DNA of 64,000 bases from a virus (lineage: Duplodnaviria > Heunggongvirae > Uroviricota > Caudoviricetes). This document shows, piece after piece, positions 1 to 62,760 of this stretch. The translations under genes were made by a program, and so were the position numbers. The stretch is taken from IMG/VR virus record IMGVR_UViG_2713896905_000004, positions 31,599 to 95,598 of that record. One strand, given 5' to 3'. Within the stretch, counting starts at the first letter, position 1. Each line of letters starts with the position of its first letter. A model generated the notes under the pieces. The model did no database searches. It saw only the letters and a program-made list of their open reading frames with translations, and had not been told where the DNA came from.

Positions 1-3000
1 TTCTTGGTACTGATGGCACTCCAGTTATGCGCGATGCTCTTAAGCTGGCAGATGAAGCCACTATCACGGCGCGGATGAACGCGATCCCGCACTCAAATTA
101 CCGTGCAGTCGTGTTTACCAAAGAACAATACGCCCGCATTCCGCTACGTGATGACACCGTAGATGAGCATGCACAGGATATGCTTTATGACTTCGTTGCC
201 GCCGGACGCGTAGCCAGCGCAATGGACTCCGACTCCCACCGCAAAGAGGCCGCGCGTCGCCGGGTATTGTCGGAGTATTCAGATACCGGCACCGAAAAAG
301 CAGAGAAGTATCCGTACTTTGAGGATATGGGCTTCGATAGTGTGATCGCTGACGAAGGTCACAACTACCGCAATAGCTATAAAAATGGTCGCGAAGCGTC
401 ACAACTGGCCTATCTGCCCACCAGCGCGGTGGCGCAATCGGCGCGAGATATGGCAATTAAAAACGCGTACCTGATGAAAAAGAATGGTGGGCGCGGGCCG
501 GTTCTCCTGACTGCAACGCCAGTCGTTAACACCCCGATCGATGCATACAACATGCTTTCTCATGTTCTGCCGAAGGAATACTGGCAGAACATGGGGATCT
601 ACGGTCCTGATGACTTCGTTAAATTCTTCGGCAAGACCAGGCTGGAAACGGTACAGAAAATTAGCGGTGAAGTTGAAGAAAAAATGGCGCTGGTGGGCTT
701 TGAAAACCTTGATGCGCTGCGCGGTATATTCCATCGCTGGGTAACGCTTAAAACGGCGGAAGACGTTAAGGATACCGTGGAGATCCCGGAGCTGGACGAA
801 CACCAGCAGGATGCACCACTTACTGAAGAACAACTGGCGGCGTATGAAGAATTGCGTCAGCAGGCGGAAGCGGCGGCCAAAGCCAACAATGGCGTAACGA
901 CCTCGGTCAATGAAGACGGCGTGATTGAGCACGAGAAAGCCCGTCCGATCTTCTCAATAATCAGGGATATGGACCGCGTATGTACTGACATGGACCTGTA
1001 CTATCGCCGGATCACCTATCGTTTCCTGCCGGAGTACGCCGATGCGGTGCAGCAGCTGGCGGACAGTTTGCCTAAACAAGCCACCAGCGAAGACGACGAC
1101 AGTGATGATTCAATCACGCAGCAATCGCAATACTCCCTGATAGATAAGGGCGAGTTTATTCAGTTGCAGGTTCCGGAAGCGTTCGAGCAGGAAGTGAATA
1201 AGCGCCTGGCCAGGTTTGGCATTGACGAACAGACCGTAACTCACCCCGTTACGCCCAAATACGCGAAGCTGATCGCCACGCTGAAGGAGTTTTTCCCGGA
1301 AGGTAAGCAAATCATCTTCACCGATGAAAAAACGCAGCACCAGAAGCTCAAGCGCATTATCTGCAATGCTCTTAACCTTGAACCTTCAAAGGTGGGGATC
1401 CTGAATGCTCAGACGGTTGCCGAGGCAGGTAAAACCGGTCAGAAACTGAAAGCTGTTAAACCGCCGAAAGAGCTACCGGATGAACCAACAGATGCGCAGA
1501 TAGCGAAATACAACGAGCAAATGGCTCTGTATGACGCCTATATCGCGCAGCAAAATGAAATGTCGCTGGGCGGGCTGGAAAAGATTGCTGCCGACTTCCA
1601 GGAGGGCCGGACTCCGATCATCATCTGCAACAAAAAGGCAGAGGTGGGTATCAACCTGCATCGAGGAACGACTGACATCCATCATCTGACGTTGCCATGG
1701 ACACCAGCCAGTATCGCACAGCGTAACGGTCGCGGTGCCCGAGTTGGCTCCAACCGTGCAAGCGTTCGCGTTCACTACTACTGCGGCAAGGGTTCTTTCG
1801 ATGAATACCGACTGAAGACGCTGAAGCGTAAAGCAGGCTGGATATCCGATATCCTCCGTTCAGATAAGTCAGAAATGGAGAACGCCGACGCCAACGATAT
1901 GATCGAAATGCAGATGTATACCGCTAAGGATGATGGCGAACGTCTGGCAATGATGCAGGTTCAAATGGATAAGGCGAAAGCCGCGCAACGCGCTCGCCAG
2001 AAAGAACAGGCTACTATCGACCTTCAGAACTACATCAAGGCGCAGCACGCAGCTGGCGAGGATGTGGAGGTACTTACCGCTGAATTAGAGCGAAGCAAAG
2101 CGGAACTTGAAAAGACCACCGCCGACGTCGCCAAATTCAAACAGGCGGCAATGGCCAAGGCAGCGGATAACGCAGACTGGAAGGCACGATGGGGGAGTGT
2201 CCATAACGCTGACCGTATGTTGTTAGCTCAGTATCGTGCATCGTTGAAAAGTGCCATTCAACGTAAGACTGATATCTCTCAAGCCATCTCCCGCTATGAG
2301 AAATTATTGAACCGTACCCAGAAGGCCGCGACGGATATCAAACGCCTGCGCCCGCTGGTGGAGGATGCAATAAATAAAGGAATTCTGGATGTTGATCCTG
2401 ACCTGGTTAACCATGCGAGTGAGTTTCTTGTTATCGGCGATCGCTCATGGCGTGTAGGCCAATACTACGATTGTGCCGGTGATATCGTTCGCATTAAGTC
2501 GCTGGACTTCGACAGCCAGCGCGCAGACGTGGAGATCATCTTTACCTTAAAAGGCACCAAATCGGGTAACTGGGATGTGAAGACGCTGGATAAACAGGTT
2601 GATGTAACTCCCGATGAAGATGCAGTTATGCAGAAAATCAGTGGCGGCGTCTCCATCGCCGGGATTAATGACATCATTTCCTGTGACGATTTCTACCGTT
2701 TCCAGCAGCGCGGCATGATCAAAATCACTGACTCGTACGGCGTCCAGACTACAGAGTCAGGCTACAGCATTGATTTTGTTGGTACCTATACTGATCCACT
2801 GAAGCATGCTGTTTATCCTGATCGCCGTGACGGCGCGCTGAAGTCGTCAATTGCAAAATGGGTGCTTGGTATGATGTCGGAAGGGAATAACCACCAGGTC
2901 CGTTTGGCCGAAGTGTTCCTGACGGAACTGTTTGGCTCCAATTATGGCGATGTAATCGCGTCATACGGAGATACGCTATCCCCTGAAGCAATTCAGGAGA

Positions 3001-3965
3001 AAATAGCGGATGCGATCGCCAGAATGCCGGAAAAAACAAGCCAGGGGGCTACTCGTAACGGGGATTCTGAACTTGAGGTCACCAATGCCATTTTCGGTAC
3101 CAATGAGTTCCGGGCGTCAGATTATGAGATCACCACAACACAGTTTGGCACCATTGGCATTTACAGCAATAAAGACGAGATCAAGCAGGCAATGGACGCT
3201 GCAAGCGCGCGCATTGCAGCAGAACGGAAAGCTAATCTGAATCATGCAGTCGCCACGCTGACTCAATCGTGGGTAACAGCAATCAGGGAGGCCGCCACCA
3301 CAGGGAAAATCACACCAGCAATTGCGGATGTCGTAAACGACGGCTCTAAATTTATGGATGCCTATAAAATGGATGCGGTGCAGTTGCCATCAGCCTATGG
3401 ACAACTCAGCCATCGCATGACCTACAACCTGGTATCAATGTTTTCCGATCTTGCCATCCTTGGGCTGGTGGACCTTAACGAGGTTACGCCGGAATTGCTC
3501 AGCATTCGTAATAATCATGTGGAGATATTGCACAGAATTAACACGGTACTTGCCGGGCGCACCGATGAAGAGAAACAGGCAGACGCTGATCGGATAAACC
3601 TGGCCCTTGGTAACATCACGGAGGAGGAAATTGCCGCCAGAAACGAGAAACAAGAAGAGTTATCATCAATACAGGGGGATGCCACCAGCATAGCTCAGTC
3701 TCTTGGTCTGAATTATCGCGTATCCACTGCCGACCTGAAGATGATGTACGCACCAAAATTCGCCTCTGGCGAGGTATTTGGGCTTCAGGAGGCGTCCGGC
3801 ATGAAAGGTGTCCTTTTCCGTGCTAAAGACGCAATCAAGGTGAAATTCGGCGCTCGCTGGCTGCCTGCGAAGGCGAAGAACAGCGATTTCCCGGGTAACT
3901 GGTGGATTATCGAGACAAAACACAACGTGGCGGACGTTCTGGCCGTCATCCAACAATACGCATAA
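1..3965 (+). CDS. darB: C-terminal part of a very large helicase-domain protein (DarB-like); 5' end lies outside the window
   Basis: ORF is open to the window edge; SF2 helicase motifs DEGHNYRN and LLTATPVVNTP plus a C-terminal helicase motif; position next to ulx/lxc-like genes as in P1. Confidence 0.65.
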   Translation, partial: LGTDGTPVMRDALKLADEATITARMNAIPHSNYRAVVFTKEQYARIPLRDDTVDEHAQDMLYDFVAAGRVASAMDSDSHRKEAARRRVLSEYSDTGTEKAEKYPYFEDMGFDSVIADEGHNYRNSYKNGREASQLAYLPTSAVAQSARDMAIKNAYLMKKNGGRGPVLLTATPVVNTPIDAYNMLSHVLPKEYWQNMGIYGPDDFVKFFGKTRLETVQKISGEVEEKMALVGFENLDALRGIFHRWVTLKTAEDVKDTVEIPELDEHQQDAPLTEEQLAAYEELRQQAEAAAKANNGVTTSVNEDGVIEHEKARPIFSIIRDMDRVCTDMDLYYRRITYRFLPEYADAVQQLADSLPKQATSEDDDSDDSITQQSQYSLIDKGEFIQLQVPEAFEQEVNKRLARFGIDEQTVTHPVTPKYAKLIATLKEFFPEGKQIIFTDEKTQHQKLKRIICNALNLEPSKVGILNAQTVAEAGKTGQKLKAVKPPKELPDEPTDAQIAKYNEQMALYDAYIAQQNEMSLGGLEKIAADFQEGRTPIIICNKKAEVGINLHRGTTDIHHLTLPWTPASIAQRNGRGARVGSNRASVRVHYYCGKGSFDEYRLKTLKRKAGWISDILRSDKSEMENADANDMIEMQMYTAKDDGERLAMMQVQMDKAKAAQRARQKEQATIDLQNYIKAQHAAGEDVEVLTAELERSKAELEKTTADVAKFKQAAMAKAADNADWKARWGSVHNADRMLLAQYRASLKSAIQRKTDISQAISRYEKLLNRTQKAATDIKRLRPLVEDAINKGILDVDPDLVNHASEFLVIGDRSWRVGQYYDCAGDIVRIKSLDFDSQRADVEIIFTLKGTKSGNWDVKTLDKQVDVTPDEDAVMQKISGGVSIAGINDIISCDDFYRFQQRGMIKITDSYGVQTTESGYSIDFVGTYTDPLKHAVYPDRRDGALKSSIAKWVLGMMSEGNNHQVRLAEVFLTELFGSNYGDVIASYGDTLSPEAIQEKIADAIARMPEKTSQGATRNGDSELEVTNAIFGTNEFRASDYEITTTQFGTIGIYSNKDEIKQAMDAASARIAAERKANLNHAVATLTQSWVTAIREAATTGKITPAIADVVNDGSKFMDAYKMDAVQLPSAYGQLSHRMTYNLVSMFSDLAILGLVDLNEVTPELLSIRNNHVEILHRINTVLAGRTDEEKQADADRINLALGNITEEEIAARNEKQEELSSIQGDATSIAQSLGLNYRVSTADLKMMYAPKFASGEVFGLQEASGMKGVLFRAKDAIKVKFGARWLPAKAKNSDFPGNWWIIETKHNVADVLAVIQQYA

Positions 3966-4803: not shown

Positions 4804-5409
4804 TTATTTTTTTGCCGATACCATAGCTTGTATAATGGTATCAATATCGCGATTATTTAACATGAAGATGGGGATACCATTAATCTTGCCCGTTTTATTG
4901 GTACTCATCACGCAAAGCCCCTCATACATCCCTCGGGTTTTTGTGAAATTAGCGACTGGTGGAGTAGTGTAATTCCCTTTAAAGTGCATCCCCGCTGATT
5001 CATAAAAAGGAACTAAAGCAGACTGGCAAATCAATCCGACTTCATTTGGAAATGCAAGTATTTCTGCCAGTATCTTACTTCCAATCCCATTACCACGATA
5101 TTGCTCATATACATAAATTTTATGGCAGTACAATGGTAAGTTTCCTGATGGATGTCCAAAAATTAAGGCGTACCCGAACAACTGTCCTTCATTAGTAAAG
5201 CCCATAATGCGTAAATGTCCGGCTCGGTAACACTCTTCAAATACGTCTATTATGTGGCTTCGTGCCGCTTTCAGTTCCTCTTCTGTCGCAAACATCATCA
5301 TCCCCATCAGCGATGGGGTACAGGCCAGATCCTGAATAATCCCATTAGCTTCATTTTCGAAGATTAATGGTAGGTGTGGTACAATTTCGTTTGTCGAAGT
5401 GTCAGGCAT
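4804..5409 (-). CDS. GNAT-family N-acetyltransferase
   Basis: Acetyl-CoA binding motif YRGNGIGSKIL and C-terminal LVPFYESAGMHF; AGGAG ribosome-binding site 7 nt upstream; AT-rich relative to flanks. Confidence 0.8.
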   Translation of the reverse strand: MPDTSTNEIVPHLPLIFENEANGIIQDLACTPSLMGMMMFATEEELKAARSHIIDVFEECYRAGHLRIMGFTNEGQLFGYALIFGHPSGNLPLYCHKIYVYEQYRGNGIGSKILAEILAFPNEVGLICQSALVPFYESAGMHFKGNYTTPPVANFTKTRGMYEGLCVMSTNKTGKINGIPIFMLNNRDIDTIIQAMVSAKK

Positions 5410-7556: not shown

Positions 7557-8588
7557 CTAATCACCATCTTCCAGTAGGCGCACCATTGCCCCCGTTTCAC
7601 TATCCAGATTACGGATATAGTTCATGACAATATTTACGTTGGTCCAGCCACCAGCTTGCATGATCTCCGGTATTGAAACTCCGGCGCGGGCCATATCTCG
7701 CGCGGCTCCGACACGGGCACTGTGTCCAGACCAGGCCAGGTACCTCTGGCCAGAGTCATCCTTAGCCCCGTAAATCAATCGGTGAGTTGCTTCAAAAATC
7801 CCTTCCAGGGCACGAGTTGATAGCTGGCTGGTGGATGATGGCGCGGCGACACCATTTTTTCTGACCCGGCAAAACAGGTAGTTATTCGGATCATCAGCGA
7901 CACCAGAGACAGAAATCCATCGCTCGACCAGTTTAGTTACCCCCAGGCTAAGTGCCTTCTCTACACCTGCGGTGCTAACCAGCGTTTTCGTTCTGCCGAT
8001 ATGGATTAACATTCTCCCACCGTCAGTACGTGAGATATCTTTAACCCTGATCCTGGCAATTTCGGCTATACGTAACAAGGTGTTATAAGCAATCCCCAGA
8101 AATGCCAGATTACGTATATCCTGGCAGCGATCGCTATTTTCCATGAGTGAACGAACCTGGTCGAAATCAGTGCGTTCGAACGCCAATGCCTGTTTTGCAC
8201 GTTCACCGGCATCAACGTTTTCTTTTCGGATCCGCCGCATGACCAGTGAAACAGCATTGCTGTCACTTGGTCGTGGCAGCCCGGACCGACGATGAAGCAT
8301 GTTTAGCTGGCCCAAATGTTGCTGGATAGTTTTTACTGCCAGACCGCGCGCCTGAAGATATAGAAGATAATCGCGAACATCTTCAGGTTCTGCGGGAAAC
8401 CATTTCCGGTTATTCAACTTGCACCATGCCGCCCACGACCGGCAAACGGACAGAAGCATTTTCCAGGTATGCTCAGAAAACGCTTGGCGATCCCTGAACA
8501 TGTCCATCAGGTTCTTGCGAACCTCATCACTCGTTGCATCGACCGGCAATGCAGGCAAATTTTGGTGAACGGTTAACGAATTAGTCAT
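7557..8588 (-). CDS. cre: Cre site-specific tyrosine recombinase
   Basis: 343-aa protein matching P1 Cre essentially end to end, adjacent to loxP. Confidence 0.97.
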   Translation of the reverse strand: MTNSLTVHQNLPALPVDATSDEVRKNLMDMFRDRQAFSEHTWKMLLSVCRSWAAWCKLNNRKWFPAEPEDVRDYLLYLQARGLAVKTIQQHLGQLNMLHRRSGLPRPSDSNAVSLVMRRIRKENVDAGERAKQALAFERTDFDQVRSLMENSDRCQDIRNLAFLGIAYNTLLRIAEIARIRVKDISRTDGGRMLIHIGRTKTLVSTAGVEKALSLGVTKLVERWISVSGVADDPNNYLFCRVRKNGVAAPSSTSQLSTRALEGIFEATHRLIYGAKDDSGQRYLAWSGHSARVGAARDMARAGVSIPEIMQAGGWTNVNIVMNYIRNLDSETGAMVRLLEDGD

Positions 8589-8980
8589 TTATTATGCGTA
8601 ATTTTAACAGTTAAGCCTTGTTCATGAAGTATCTCATCAATAATTCGAATCACATCCCCTGGTAGATCATCGTTCTCGAAATATCTGTGATCGGGGATTT
8701 CTACAGTGATTGGGGTTGCTGCTTTATGCAAAATCCGAACAATCTTTTTTTCTTTTTTGCATGTTGCATATTCAGCCTCTTCGATATCTATCCAGCTCGC
8801 TCCATCAAATTGCTGGTAAACCCGAGTGTATAGTAAGCGGTTTCGCTTTACTTCTTCTGCTAACTCCCAAATTGCAACAGCCATAGCACGTTCATTCTCA
8901 CTCGTTCCAGGGTTAGCTGCTTTTTGTTTTGCGTCCTTAAGTAAGGCGTTTACCTTGGCATCTGTCAGGCTATTAAACAT
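8585..8980 (-). CDS. hypothetical 131-aa protein translationally coupled to cre
   Basis: GAGGTG ribosome-binding site; stop TGA overlaps the cre ATG (ATGA). Confidence 0.6.
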   Translation of the reverse strand: MFNSLTDAKVNALLKDAKQKAANPGTSENERAMAVAIWELAEEVKRNRLLYTRVYQQFDGASWIDIEEAEYATCKKEKKIVRILHKAATPITVEIPDHRYFENDDLPGDVIRIIDEILHEQGLTVKITHNK

Positions 8981-8999
8981 GCATCACCTCATGATCAAG

Positions 9000-9221
9000 T
9001 TAAATTATTGTTTTCAGCAGAGTGTACAGGATTGCCTCTGCCTTTACCTGGTTATGGTTCTCGTCATAGAAACGCCAGCGACCGCGCGTGCGTTCTATTT
9101 TCTCTTCACCGCGAGATAATGACAGTTGGTAACTATCACGCTCAAAGCCTTTTGCCCGCCAGTAACCACGGTTTTTCTCAAGCTCAAGATGAGTGGACAC
9201 TTTAGCAGCTGAATATCCCAT
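9000..9221 (-). CDS. hypothetical 73-aa protein
   Basis: GAGGTG ribosome-binding site 5 nt before ATG; same strand, 20-bp gap to the next gene. Confidence 0.4.
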   Translation of the reverse strand: MGYSAAKVSTHLELEKNRGYWRAKGFERDSYQLSLSRGEEKIERTRGRWRFYDENHNQVKAEAILYTLLKTII

Positions 9222-9410
9222 TTTTCACCTCTGATTGATTGGTGGTGCTAAGCGCGCTACGCGAAATCTGGAGCACTAACTCTGCCAACTTTTCTCAGAT
9301 TTTACGTAGCGCAATCTTGATCAAATGATCAAGTGATCACTATTTAACCTGACAAGGTATTGAACTGTATGGATTTACAGGTAAATTGATCATGTTCAAT
9401 AACCCTTAAA

Positions 9411-9444
9411 ATAACTTCGTATAATGTATGCTATACGAAGTTAT
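9411..9444. other. loxP recombination site
   Basis: Exact ataacttcgtata-atgtatgc-tatacgaagttat (13-bp inverted repeats, 8-bp spacer). Confidence 0.97.
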
Positions 9445-9825: not shown

Positions 9826-10035
9826 ATGGCTTTCATTCAACCAACCATCGACGACGTTAGACATTGCTCTAACGCTTTATCTGTAGACCCTGCCGAAACC
9901 GACGCTGCCCGCGCCATTGCTGAACACTACTCAAAGATATCCAATCAGGAGTACCGCATCACCCAAGACGACCTGGATGACCTCACTGACACAATCGAAT
10001 ATCTCATGGCAACTAACCAGTTGGACTCACAATAA
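9826..10035 (+). CDS. coi: Coi-like C1 inactivator
   Basis: 69-aa ORF immediately upstream of c1. Confidence 0.65.
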   Translation: MAFIQPTIDDVRHCSNALSVDPAETDAARAIAEHYSKISNQEYRITQDDLDDLTDTIEYLMATNQLDSQ

Positions 10036-10145: not shown

Positions 10146-10997
10146 ATGATAAATTATGTCTACGGCGAACAACTGTACCAGGAGTTCGTCAGCTTCAGGG
10201 ATCTCTTTCTAAAAAAAGCTGTTGCACGCGCCCAACACGTTGATACAGCCAGCGACGGTCGTCCTGTACGCCCGGTTGTCGTTCTACCGTTCAAAGAAAC
10301 TGACAGCATTCAGGCTGAAATTGATAAATGGACTTTAATGGCGCGGGAACTGGAACAGTACCCAGACCTCAATATCCCAAAGACTATTTTATATCCAGTG
10401 CCTAACATCCTTCGCGGTGTGCGTAAGGTTACAACTTATCAGACAGAGGCTGTGAACAGCGTCAACATGACCGCTGGCCGCATTATTCATCTGATTGATA
10501 AGGACATTCGCATCCAAAAAAGCGCGGGGATCAATGAGCACAGTGCGAAATACATAGAGAACCTGGAAGCAACAAAAGAGCTAATGAAGCAGTACCCGGA
10601 GGATGAAAAATTCCGTATGCGCGTACACGGCTTTAGCGAAACAATGCTGCGCGTCCACTACATTTCCAGTAGCCCTAACTACAATGATGGTAAATCAGTT
10701 AGTTACCATGTGCCACTGTGTGGCGTGTTTATCTGCGATGAAACTCTCCGTGATGGAATTATCATCAACGGTGAATTCGAAAAAGCAAAATTTAGCCTTT
10801 ATGACTCCATAGAACCGATCATCTGCGACCGCTGGCCGCAAGCAAAAATATATCGCCTGGCAGATATTGAAAATGTAAAAAAACAAATTGCCATCACTCG
10901 CGAAGAGAAAAAGGTTAAGTCAGCCGCATCAGTTACGCGCAGCCGTAAAACCAAGAAGGGGCAGCCAGTAAACGACAACCCCGAAAGCGCGCAATAA
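10146..10997 (+). CDS. c1: C1 repressor of lysis
   Basis: 283-aa protein recognised as P1 C1; its operator is found throughout the window. Confidence 0.85.
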   Translation: MINYVYGEQLYQEFVSFRDLFLKKAVARAQHVDTASDGRPVRPVVVLPFKETDSIQAEIDKWTLMARELEQYPDLNIPKTILYPVPNILRGVRKVTTYQTEAVNSVNMTAGRIIHLIDKDIRIQKSAGINEHSAKYIENLEATKELMKQYPEDEKFRMRVHGFSETMLRVHYISSSPNYNDGKSVSYHVPLCGVFICDETLRDGIIINGEFEKAKFSLYDSIEPIICDRWPQAKIYRLADIENVKKQIAITREEKKVKSAASVTRSRKTKKGQPVNDNPESAQ

Positions 10998-11029: not shown

Positions 11030-12148
11030 TTATTCAGCCGCCACCGGTTTTAACAAGCCAGCATCGAGCAGTTTACGCGTCAACCACTGCTGGCCTTTAC
11101 CCGTTAATTGAGGCGTCAACCGTATCTGGTAGCCATCTTCATCATCCAGCACCACTTCTTTCACCGTGAAATACCCCGCGTTGATGTACTGCTGGAACGG
11201 CACATTTTTACGTCCACCGGACGCTATCAGGATGCCGTTCTCCCGTAACCAGACAAACAGCGCGTTTTGCTTAAGTCCAACAACCTTTGCAAAATTCCCA
11301 ATCAGGATCCCTTTAGCTACTGATACCCGGTCGGCAAAATCGACCTTAGGAGCGGCGGCCACCAGCTGCTGATTTAGCTGGTGGGCTTTCTGTTCCAGAA
11401 GCTGCTTTTGTTCAGCCAGTTCGGCAGCCAGGCGTAGGGCTTCTGGTAATGTTTGGGGGATTGCAACCGGTTGCTGTTCTTTTTGCCGGAAGTAGCTGTC
11501 TTCCAGTTTTTCAAAGAATGCCCATGCCTGATCGGTTTCGAGCATTTTAGCGTGGCGGGCTGCGCCGCGTTCTGTCCAGAGGGTGAGTGAGCGAACATTG
11601 CGAGCAATTTTTACAGAGTAGTTTAAAGCTACTCTGTGCTTCAACTCGCGCAATGATTCTCCTTCAACTTTGAAAAAGTGCTTCCCTTCAACAAAGCGTA
11701 CTTTGTTCTCATGATGATTTTGGCGAATACGGATTGTTTCTGTCCCATACCCTCTAGCAAGAGTCTCGGTTGTCACTACACGCACTCCCTGCCATTCCAG
11801 AACGGGAATTTCATCAGACTGATTCTGAACAACCACCAGCTCCGATTCCTGAACTGAAGGTGCATGAATTTTTTCTGATTTAACGTTAGTTGCTTTCATT
11901 CTGTGTGCCTCCTTGCGTGCTTCGGCTGCGACGGTTGCGTAATTCAGATGACCCTGTTCGAGCAGGTATTCGCGGATATCAGACAACAGGATACGGTGAA
12001 CCGCGTTCTTGTCCTTTCTCCGGTAAAGTTGTTTGGTGATCATGAAGTAGTTGGCAATAACGCCTGGTATATCCCTGGTACTGATACAGGCAGTGTGCTG
12101 TTCAATTGCCTCGATCATCTCTTCACGGGTAACTAACGATGTTCTCAT
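11030..12148 (-). CDS. Ant-like antirepressor paralog
   Basis: C-terminal ~190 aa nearly identical to the 469-aa Ant at 60843-62252 and to the KilA C-terminus; N-terminus about 60-75 percent identical to Ant. Confidence 0.75.
   Translation of the reverse strand: MRTSLVTREEMIEAIEQHTACISTRDIPGVIANYFMITKQLYRRKDKNAVHRILLSDIREYLLEQGHLNYATVAAEARKEAHRMKATNVKSEKIHAPSVQESELVVVQNQSDEIPVLEWQGVRVVTTETLARGYGTETIRIRQNHHENKVRFVEGKHFFKVEGESLRELKHRVALNYSVKIARNVRSLTLWTERGAARHAKMLETDQAWAFFEKLEDSYFRQKEQQPVAIPQTLPEALRLAAELAEQKQLLEQKAHQLNQQLVAAAPKVDFADRVSVAKGILIGNFAKVVGLKQNALFVWLRENGILIASGGRKNVPFQQYINAGYFTVKEVVLDDEDGYQIRLTPQLTGKGQQWLTRKLLDAGLLKPVAAE
11040..11600. repeat. long dispersed repeat, copy 1 (roughly 90 percent identical to 60855-61400)
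   Basis: By-eye alignment of the 3' portions of the two ant-like genes. Confidence 0.7.
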
Positions 12149-12366: not shown

Positions 12367-12685
12367 ATTGGCAGCCTCCTTAGACGTTGGTATGTAACCA
12401 CCGCAGAAGAGACCAATCTTGCTGGCGGTGGACTGTACGGAGTTGGCCTTACTGGCGTCCAAGGTAACCAGCCTACCCGAAGGTAGCCCCATACAGCCCA
12501 CCATTGTAGAGGTGTGCGTGTACGCCGATACAAAAAAAGACGCGAGCGGCGTCTGTATCGCCTTAGACTTAAGCGGGAGGCCAATCCCGGCACCCGTTTT
12601 AATGAGGTGCCTGATAAGCATAAACCGAAAATGCCTCAAGGCGCAAGAGGTCAGGTTCAATGTAACATCGGTAGTTAAAAAACAC

Positions 12686-57891: not shown

Positions 57892-58524
57892 ATGTTTGTG
57901 CCTGTACTGTTAAAGGGGGACTCTAAAATGGCTGTGATTCCAATGTCGTACTCCCCGGGTACTGTCGCTCGTCGATTTTCGATCCTGGACGGAGTTACCA
58001 TCCAGGGTGTGCTTTACCAGGTTATATGGGATTCCAAAACCCCATTTGCAGCTGTAATAGAGGCTGCGCCTTCTGTTATCGATGGTGATATGCGCCATAA
58101 GGTTGTCGCTACTCTTGAACTTCAACGTCGCCCGCAGCTTGAAGGCGTACTGGTAAGGAAGTTCTGGGAGGATAGCGATGTTGCCCAGATTGAAGGTATC
58201 GTGGTTGATGGAACCGTCCGGGATGTCGGTTTAGCTACTTTTGTTTACGAAACCGTAGCCTCAAAAGCTGGTGTTGTTTTGCTCAGTGATAATGAGCAAT
58301 ACGAAGGTGGAAAAGCTCTTTGGCAACACATCGCCCGTCGCTCTTCCGAGCTAAAAGTGTTTATCCTCGACACCGATGCCGCTCAGTATTACCCGTTTGA
58401 CGGCGAACGTGTTTGCTATGACGGGGTAAGTATTCCTGAATCCGAGATATGGAGTGAACACCCAGATCGAAGTAAGCATGGGGTTGTTCTGGTCGCTGAA
58501 TCCATAATTGGAAAGGCGGCATAG
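57892..58524 (+). CDS. hypothetical protein behind an AT-rich leader
   Basis: 210-aa ORF (possible internal start at MAVIPMSY). Confidence 0.45.
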   Translation: MFVPVLLKGDSKMAVIPMSYSPGTVARRFSILDGVTIQGVLYQVIWDSKTPFAAVIEAAPSVIDGDMRHKVVATLELQRRPQLEGVLVRKFWEDSDVAQIEGIVVDGTVRDVGLATFVYETVASKAGVVLLSDNEQYEGGKALWQHIARRSSELKVFILDTDAAQYYPFDGERVCYDGVSIPESEIWSEHPDRSKHGVVLVAESIIGKAA

Positions 58525-58706
58525 CAGTAAAAAATTCCTTGCTCCTAAAAAGGGGAGAGGGCTAATCTACGTATGCTAAGCATAGATATGGCCTCAGATT
58601 AATGTTAAGCGTCTTGCAGGACGCGTAATGTTATCTGGGGCTTTCTTCTATCTGCTTGTCGGGTAATGCCTGAAGCAGATAGCCTCAAGCACCCGCAGCG
58701 ATTGTA

Positions 58707-62479: not shown

Positions 62480-62760
62480 CTCGTAAGTTGATAAACAACC
62501 TGCGACCCGCTGCTAAACAGGTGGCAGGACGTGACGGGGTTAGCAGACTGGCACTTACGAAACCAGCAGGCCGAAGCCTCCCCATCACGCCCCACCATAA
62601 TTCGGGCGTAACGTGGTTTACGGACACAAAAATACCGCAATATCGGAAATCTGCGGTTGTCCGCGTAAGTATTCAGGCTGCTAAACCCGGTCGCAGAATT
62701 TGCTACGACGGCGGAACTATAAGCCTGAACGATTAAAAGGTCAATATGATGTGAAAAGAT
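62480..62760 (-). ncRNA. region expected to encode the c4-type antisense RNA and its target sites
   Basis: Non-coding leader between operator and icd; repeated ctgctaaac motifs; exact ends not determined. Confidence 0.3.

Follow-up and report, generated by a model that had tools for sequence, protein, structure and literature searches.

An additional gene, ORF131, between cra and cre in a P1-like plasmid-prophage

Introduction

Cre-lox is a heavily used recombination tool and, to our knowledge, is regarded as needing no helper protein. In the closest described system, the cre operon of phage P1 (X03453; AF234172), loxP is followed by the "cre-associated" gene cra and then by cre, located at 207..428 and 436..1467 of AF234172, respectively. 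The first of these genes is described in the literature only as an open reading frame (ORF) between loxP and cre, and a PepA/ArgR proposal for how P1 would restrain Cre from forming dimers while letting it resolve them was tested and rejected (PMC2409434). Here we analyze the corresponding locus in a stretch of 64,000 nucleotides (hereafter, the window) from the viral record IMGVR_UViG_2713896905_000004 (positions 31,599 to 95,598), which is a P1-like (Punavirus-type) plasmid-prophage. In the window an additional gene for a protein of 131 amino acids (aa), designated ORF131, stands between cra and cre. We interpret the locus as the P1 cra–cre operon with one extra gene, and lean, with modest confidence, towards ORF131 being a dispensable passenger of that operon.

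Organization of the cre operon

In the order leading away from loxP, the minus strand of the window carries a 73-aa ORF (9000..9221), ORF131 (8585..8980) and cre (7557..8588). The genes coi (9826..10035) and c1 (10146..10997) are on the opposite side of loxP from cre. The loxP site (9411..9444, strand unassigned) is a canonical 34-bp site (26/26 arm matches), and is identical both to P1 lox and to the lox of a divergent Salmonella lineage of P1-like elements. Alignment of the window to P1 gave zero indels from lox through the end of cra, with the start of the 73-aa ORF falling at P1 position 207. We identify the 73-aa ORF from these data as P1 cra (ORF1 of X03453), since it occupies the same position with no indel between lox and the cra end, and has the same lox distance and ribosome-binding site as in P1. 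The ORF is ~93% identical to P1 Cra (AAQ13977, from AF234172; 73 aa in both), and it matches phrog_804 (E = 1.8e-33). In a megablast search against phage records, the interval matched P1, P7, SJ46, RCS47 and others in two pieces, annotated as Cra and Cre.

The three annotated cre promoters, the three Dam sites and the LexA box mapped essentially unchanged from P1 to the window. The P3cre equivalent (9299..9324, minus strand; −35 TTGATC with a Dam site, −10 TAAAAT), mapped from AF234172, has both hexamers the same as in P1, and would function as it does there. The P2cre equivalent (9116..9145, minus strand), which lies within cra and was mapped from the same record, has the −35 hexamer TTGAGC in the window versus TTGATC in P1, with the −10 CATTAT unchanged. 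The putative P1cre equivalent (9004..9028, minus strand; −35 TGTACA, −10 ATAAT), mapped from 400..424 of AF234172, is at the 3′ end of cra; this promoter is ~12 nt before the cre ATG in P1, and in the window it is directly upstream of the Shine-Dalgarno (SD) sequence and start codon of ORF131.

An earlier, sequence-only reading of this DNA had put the distance from loxP to cre at ~430 bp in P1 and ~820 bp in the window. These were about right: from the near edge of loxP to the cre ATG the distance is 419 bp in P1 and 823 bp in the window, or 435 and 839 bp, respectively, if measured from the lox center. The insertion relative to P1 that it placed between loxP and cre is borne out by the alignment. 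That reading also took the extra sequence to encode both small ORFs, and neither protein to be recognizable, which stands for the 131-aa ORF and its product and fails for the 73-aa ORF, identified above as cra; the occurrence of both ORFs here in P1 had been set beforehand as grounds for giving up the idea, and P1 has one of the two (cra). Its description of two small genes translationally coupled to cre is upheld for ORF131, the stop codon of which does overlap the cre start as ATGA (8585..8588), and not for cra, which is separated from ORF131 by 19 nt. The GAGGTG motif that it placed before both ORFs was read at 8985..8990 (ORF131) and 9226..9231 (cra). The spacing from GAGG to ATG is six nt for each, and the predicted pairing with the anti-SD sequence (−7.1 kcal/mol for the 73-aa ORF and −6.9 kcal/mol for ORF131) ranks near the 5th percentile among 20-mers drawn at random from the window.

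The analysis corrects the impression of cra as novel. Homologs of Cra are confined to P1-like elements of Escherichia, Salmonella, Klebsiella and Cronobacter, and Cra has no Pfam or NCBIfam match above noise and no PADLOC-DB 2.0 family at E ≤ 1. Many NCBI records label Cra as "creatininase" (one such cluster comprises 633 member sequences), clearly a misannotation prompted by the gene symbol cra; a protein of 73 aa is unrelated to creatininase. A structural model of Cra (alpha-beta3-alpha; predicted local distance difference test score, pLDDT, 71) weakly resembles small uncharacterized proteins of other enterobacterial phages, including Hafnia phage Enc34 and Klebsiella phage KPN U2874 (identity ≤31%, E = 8e-3 to 6e-2). 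These matches probably belong to the related phrog_8116, and Cra-like proteins may exist outside the P1-like elements.

Origin of the inserted cassette

In place of the 7-nt cra–cre spacer of P1, the window has 411 nt (8589..8999, minus strand; a net gain of 404 bp) that hold one gene, ORF131. The exchanged cassette extends beyond this DNA (8562..9024, minus strand; borders approximate), and comprises ~25 nt from the cra end, the 19-nt spacer that holds the SD sequence, ORF131, and ~27 nt from the cre start. The sequence on either side of the cassette is P1-type, with matches at 44/45 nt on the cra side and at 62/63 nt from cre nt 27 onwards. Within the cassette, the 5′ end of cre matches a Salmonella-type empty locus at 25 of 27 positions versus 20 of 27 for P1, and the last 25 nt of cra match a Salmonella carrier of ORF131 at 22 positions versus 18 for P1. 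We infer that this ~0.46-kb cassette, which is lower in guanine-plus-cytosine (GC) content (ORF131 40%, cra 46%, cre 51%, whole window 48%), was introduced into a P1-type backbone through recombination inside the cra and cre ends, and that the stretches of both genes carried in with it came from a donor that was not P1-type.

Between the window and the Salmonella carriers, the synonymous divergence (dS) is 1.40 for cra and 0.41 for ORF131, and is saturated for cre (proportion of synonymous differences, pS, 0.81); the corresponding amino-acid identities are 59, 87 and 81%. In a sliding comparison with the same carriers, a block of 75–97% identity extends from ~9040 to 8561, between flanks of 50–75%. 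Because the cassette is far less diverged between the two P1-like lineages than are cra and cre, ORF131 is a horizontally exchanged cassette, which moved between the two via recombination involving the flanking genes. The original donor was probably a third, unsampled lineage, since the cra end of the Salmonella carrier also differs from that of its own empty sibling (17/25 over the last 25 nt); the cra 3′ end of such a donor would read CACTCTGCTGAAAACAATAAT. Insertion of the cassette by Cre was considered and rejected, as there is no lox-like site at the borders (best match 14/26, versus a window-wide random maximum of 16/26).

Distribution of ORF131

The 411-nt stretch has no DNA or protein match among 50,697 phage records. 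The cassette is present in 14 of 705 P1-like plasmids in PLSDB (~2%), and the remaining 691 have cra without ORF131. ORF131 was also identified in 32 of 5426 complete E. coli genomes, mostly on plasmids of O111 or Shiga toxin-producing E. coli (STEC), and in a handful of Salmonella contigs that represent phage-plasmids of the divergent lineage. One carrier is plasmid pO111_2 (NC_013370) of E. coli O111:H- 11128. The PLSDB matches (14) and the matches in complete E. coli genomes (33) are, without exception, single, full-length places in P1-like records, and ORF131 is exclusive to one slot, being located between a cra and a cre in every case found. E. coli 06-00048 has the cassette twice, once on a plasmid (CP012497) and once in its chromosome record, NZ_CP015229.1 (about 1878341..1878751); the chromosomal copy reflects either integration of a P1-like element or an assembly artefact.

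We tabulated 88 Cre loci, a sample that is biased towards carriers and for which the ~2% in PLSDB is the better estimate of frequency. The slot is empty in 74 P1-type loci, where the distance from the lox center to cre is 427–436 bp and Cre starts MSNL(L/M)T without exception. In the P1-type carriers, the window included, Cre starts MTNSLT (11/11), and the distance is 839 bp in the ten that have lox in the locus; the remaining three carriers are of the Salmonella lineage and have a distance of 1909 bp. No other cargo was found in the cra–cre slot among the 88 loci, the slot being either empty or occupied by ORF131. In the divergent Salmonella/Klebsiella lineage, Cre natively begins with MTNSLT, which accounts for the complete linkage of MTNSLT with ORF131 in E. 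coli.

The divergent Salmonella/Klebsiella lineage normally has the order 356-aa gene, cra, 7 nt, cre, with the slot empty as in P1, and ORF131 is present in a few members; each of the 14 empty-slot loci of this lineage has cra alone. The 356-aa gene (phrog_7674; L003:3699-4769, also L090-L103) is located between loxP and cra, and its stop codon overlaps the cra start, which suggests a cre operon of three or four coupled genes in this lineage. Searches of Pfam, NCBIfam, PADLOC and PDB gave no match to the 356-aa gene, and its sole match is phrog_7674, a family with no assigned function.

ORF131 as a gene and its protein product

ORF131 (minus strand) would encode a hydrophilic protein of 15.0 kDa with an isoelectric point (pI) of 5.8. 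The gene is intact in all 13 carrier loci that were read, and its ATG, its GAGGTG and its ATGA overlap with cre are kept in each. The ratio of nonsynonymous to synonymous divergence (dN/dS) is 0.16–0.35, with dS up to 0.44 (Nei-Gojobori); between the lineages, dN/dS is 0.16–0.18 at a dS of 0.41 and 87% amino-acid identity. These values indicate that ORF131 is a genuine gene under purifying selection. Antisense ORFs (8826..9119 on the plus strand, and others) were considered as genes and rejected, the 97-aa ORF being broken by a stop codon in the Salmonella lineage.

The sole family match of ORF131 is to PHROG 20152 (E = 9.7e-90; residues 1–131 on profile positions 1–131 of 131), a family without function. 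Searches against Pfam, NCBIfam and PDB sequences returned only noise, and no PADLOC-DB 2.0 family matched at E ≤ 1. The RefSeq entry is a hypothetical protein (WP_000481733.1), and a literature search found no paper on WP_000481733 or on an extra gene between cra and cre. A word-indexed search retrieved six near-identical clusters, and an exhaustive HMMER search of 1.84 billion representatives retrieved one real 50%-identity cluster, plus a fragment. Three long HMMER matches (E = 1e-8 to 3e-5) were rejected as homologs: their scores add up over many alignments of a ~20-aa motif (YQ.FDG.SW.DI) to the tandem repeats of cadherin/Ig-like and Olduvai proteins. On the basis of these searches, ORF131 is classed as an orphan protein. 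An AlphaFold2 model, based on a seven-sequence alignment, has a pLDDT of 51, with only the N-terminal helices (7–22 and 28–57) moderately confident, and a Foldseek search of PDB with this model gave a best E value of 1.3, which is meaningless.

ORF131 starts MFNSLT (8963..8980) and the following cre starts MTNSLT (8571..8588), both on the minus strand, with five of six residues identical (P about 6e-5; unique among 86 ORFs). The likeness is at the amino-acid level only (9/18 nt) and is the same in the Salmonella carriers; there is no similarity between ORF131 and Cre past residue 6. The possibilities that ORF131 is a decayed N-terminal domain of Cre or a relative of Cra were both rejected, as BLASTP was empty and the hhalign probabilities were 0.4% and 0.2%, respectively.

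Translation of cre in carriers

The cre gene of the window (343 aa, minus strand) is 99% identical to P1 Cre and starts MTNSLT, not MSNLLT. Its start codon shares the ATGA of 8585..8588 (minus strand, read directly) with the stop codon of ORF131. The pairing energy of the region upstream of cre with the anti-SD sequence is +1.5 kcal/mol in the window, −1.4 kcal/mol in a Salmonella carrier and −2.5 kcal/mol in P1, and it appears that the cassette displaced the ribosome-binding site of cre, leaving the cre of carriers without an SD sequence. ORF131 and cre have the sequence features of a coupled pair, namely a stop-start overlap and no independent SD sequence for the downstream gene. Given that carrier cre genes lack an SD sequence, translation of Cre is probably coupled to that of ORF131. 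The 19-nt gap between cra and ORF131 is consistent with the two genes being co-transcribed, and not necessarily coupled. No sigma-70-like promoter or terminator was found on the minus strand between 8585 and 8999, using a crude consensus scan that misses even the annotated weak cre promoters of P1.

Possible roles of ORF131

In the explanation that we prefer, ORF131 would be transcribed together with cra and cre from the conserved cre promoters and translated from its own strong SD sequence. Ribosomes would terminate at the ORF131 TGA and reinitiate at the overlapping cre ATG, so that Cre output would depend on translation of ORF131 via termination-reinitiation. As a passenger, ORF131 would exploit an operon active in the lysogen and directly upon infection, and would perform a function that Cre itself does not need; lysogenic conversion, or the countering of interference by the host or by other phages, are guesses as to what this might be. 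We favor a passenger because ~98% of relatives are without ORF131, and because of its foreign composition and horizontal exchange; Cre-lox works without ORF131 in those relatives. Other considerations weigh against this interpretation. Transcription, translation and coupling are all deduced from sequence, and the model of ORF131 (pLDDT 51) offers no positive support for any biochemical activity. Morons typically come with a dedicated promoter and terminator and are found in several contexts. ORF131 lacks both elements and has cre beside it wherever it occurs, a pattern that suits a Cre-linked role at least equally well. Furthermore, the first six residues of ORF131 mimic the Cre N-terminus, and a passenger leaves this mimicry unexplained.

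A role for ORF131 as a dedicated Cre-lox accessory, in line with the modulation of Cre that the sequence-only reading had raised, is a minor but serious possibility. In this case, ORF131 would bind Cre or the lox region and thereby influence Cre dosage, resolution bias or the timing of cyclization, with translational coupling delivering it in a fixed ratio with Cre. Such a role would be consistent with the location of ORF131 only immediately upstream of cre in two lineages with Cre proteins that are 81% identical, with the retention of the ATGA overlap in 13/13 carriers, and with a carrier cre that has no SD sequence of its own. The N-terminal hexapeptide that resembles that of Cre, and the lack of any ORF131 homolog in other contexts among the 1.84e9 representatives, also accord with it. 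However, the ~98% of P1-like elements that are without ORF131 include P1, and Cre-lox is fully functional in these; movement by flanking homology would also yield a fixed slot; the resemblance to Cre does not continue beyond residue 6 of ORF131; and the protein is not basic and matches no DNA-binding family. The more specific proposal that ORF131 is a natural partner of Cre, supplied in a fixed ratio through the ATGA and binding Cre (or lox) so as to affect dosage, timing or resolution bias, we consider unlikely. If true, ORF131 would be the first accessory factor known for Cre-lox, which is otherwise considered self-sufficient.

It is distinctly improbable that ORF131 is a long leader ORF, for which only the act of translation would matter, in that coupling would set the level of Cre, and the protein itself would be functionless. 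The ATGA overlap, the missing cre SD sequence and the displacement of the native cre initiation region by the insertion are all compatible with a leader. Against this, a 7-nt spacer suffices in P1, and the conservation of the protein (dN/dS and identity between lineages, given above) exceeds what a spacer would need.

The sequence-only reading had also raised the idea that the two small genes form a toxin-antitoxin-like or defence pair, and this is not supported: the genes are not a unit, since cra is alone in 691 of the 705 plasmids (~98%) and in 14/14 empty-slot loci of the divergent lineage, so that a toxin-antitoxin or defence pair in which both genes are obligatory is excluded. In outward form, cra and ORF131 do resemble such a pair, being small, adjacent and co-oriented, with strong SD sequences, and encoding a basic (Cra, pI 9.6) and a mildly acidic (ORF131) protein. 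However, neither protein has a PADLOC, Pfam or NCBIfam match, the genes do not overlap, and they have different histories (dS of 1.40 for cra versus 0.41 for ORF131); any looser version of the pair is very improbable. Equally hard to credit is a chance or decaying ORF in inserted junk DNA, as although orphan status, low GC content and poor structure prediction would suit this, there is purifying selection, no frameshift or stop codon in 13 carriers of two lineages, and retention of the SD sequence and the stop-start overlap.

P1-like phage-plasmids are widespread in pathogenic E. coli and Salmonella. The locus in the window is a natural variant in which translation of cre would be tied to a conserved, cre-exclusive orphan, and a single small gene with clean presence/absence among relatives provides an experimental handle. 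If ORF131 is only a passenger, the cra–cre junction would be a recombination-accessible cargo slot in P1-like phage-plasmids.

Other features of the window

Two C4 antisense RNA genes were identified in the window (12421..12508, 12533..12610, 62517..62602 and 62670..62722, all on the minus strand). One C4 RNA, together with an isrK-like RNA, adjoins a KilAC antirepressor ORF (11030..12148) beside c1, and the other has a1/b1 target sites, which suggests two immI-like immunity modules in the window; P1 presumably has one immI-like module, with pacB directly beside c1. A sok antitoxin RNA (Rfam RF01794, 89.7 bits) was identified at 58520..58694 on the minus strand, which points to the presence of a hok/sok-type addiction module, besides the phd/doc seen in relatives. 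The window also has a cluster of four tRNA genes (39605..41357, minus strand; Rfam tRNA matches).

In the variable spot past cre-c8-ref, the window has an ORF for a 201-aa GNAT acetyltransferase (4804..5409, minus strand). The same spot in relatives is occupied by a SIR2 protein (AP038984), a PIN_12 protein (L006) or, in P1, type III restriction-modification genes. A giant methylase gene (27..3965; a 1312-aa ORF) is located beside this spot, the counterpart of which in relatives is annotated as N-6 DNA methylase; the variable spot looks like a defence or cargo hotspot.

Comparison with known systems

The likeness of cra and ORF131 to type II toxin-antitoxin modules is limited to two small adjacent genes of opposite charge; unlike those modules, cra and ORF131 do not co-occur, match no families and have differing histories. 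ORF131 is similar to morons in its patchy occurrence among close relatives, its lower GC content than the flanks (40% versus 46–51%), its orphan status and its horizontal exchange. It differs from them in that no promoter or terminator was found, and in being located within an operon, translationally fused to the next gene (as far as the stop-start overlap indicates), and present in one context only.

In phage lambda, the small accessory gene xis, which encodes a recombination directionality factor, is upstream of and overlaps the tyrosine-recombinase gene int. Like xis, ORF131 is a small gene that shares an operon with the recombinase gene, immediately precedes it and has a stop codon that overlaps the recombinase start, although the likeness is positional only: ORF131 is not basic (pI 5.8), has no match to Xis, recombination directionality factors or helix-turn-helix proteins, and gave no confident fold prediction. 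A further difference is that Cre in P1 needs no accessory protein.

The closest system is the P1 cra–cre operon itself (X03453; AF234172), with which the window shares loxP, the LexA box, the Dam sites, P3cre, P2cre and P1cre, a cra gene with a GAGGTG ribosome-binding site, and a cre that is 99% identical, as well as the neighboring genes coi and c1 on one side and c8 and ref on the other. The window differs from P1 in having 411 nt with ORF131 in place of the 7-nt spacer, a Cre that starts MTNSLT rather than MSNLLT, the apparent loss of the weak cre SD sequence, and a P1cre that faces ORF131. Thus, the cra–cre operon is known, and what is new is the insertion of ORF131 between cra and cre.

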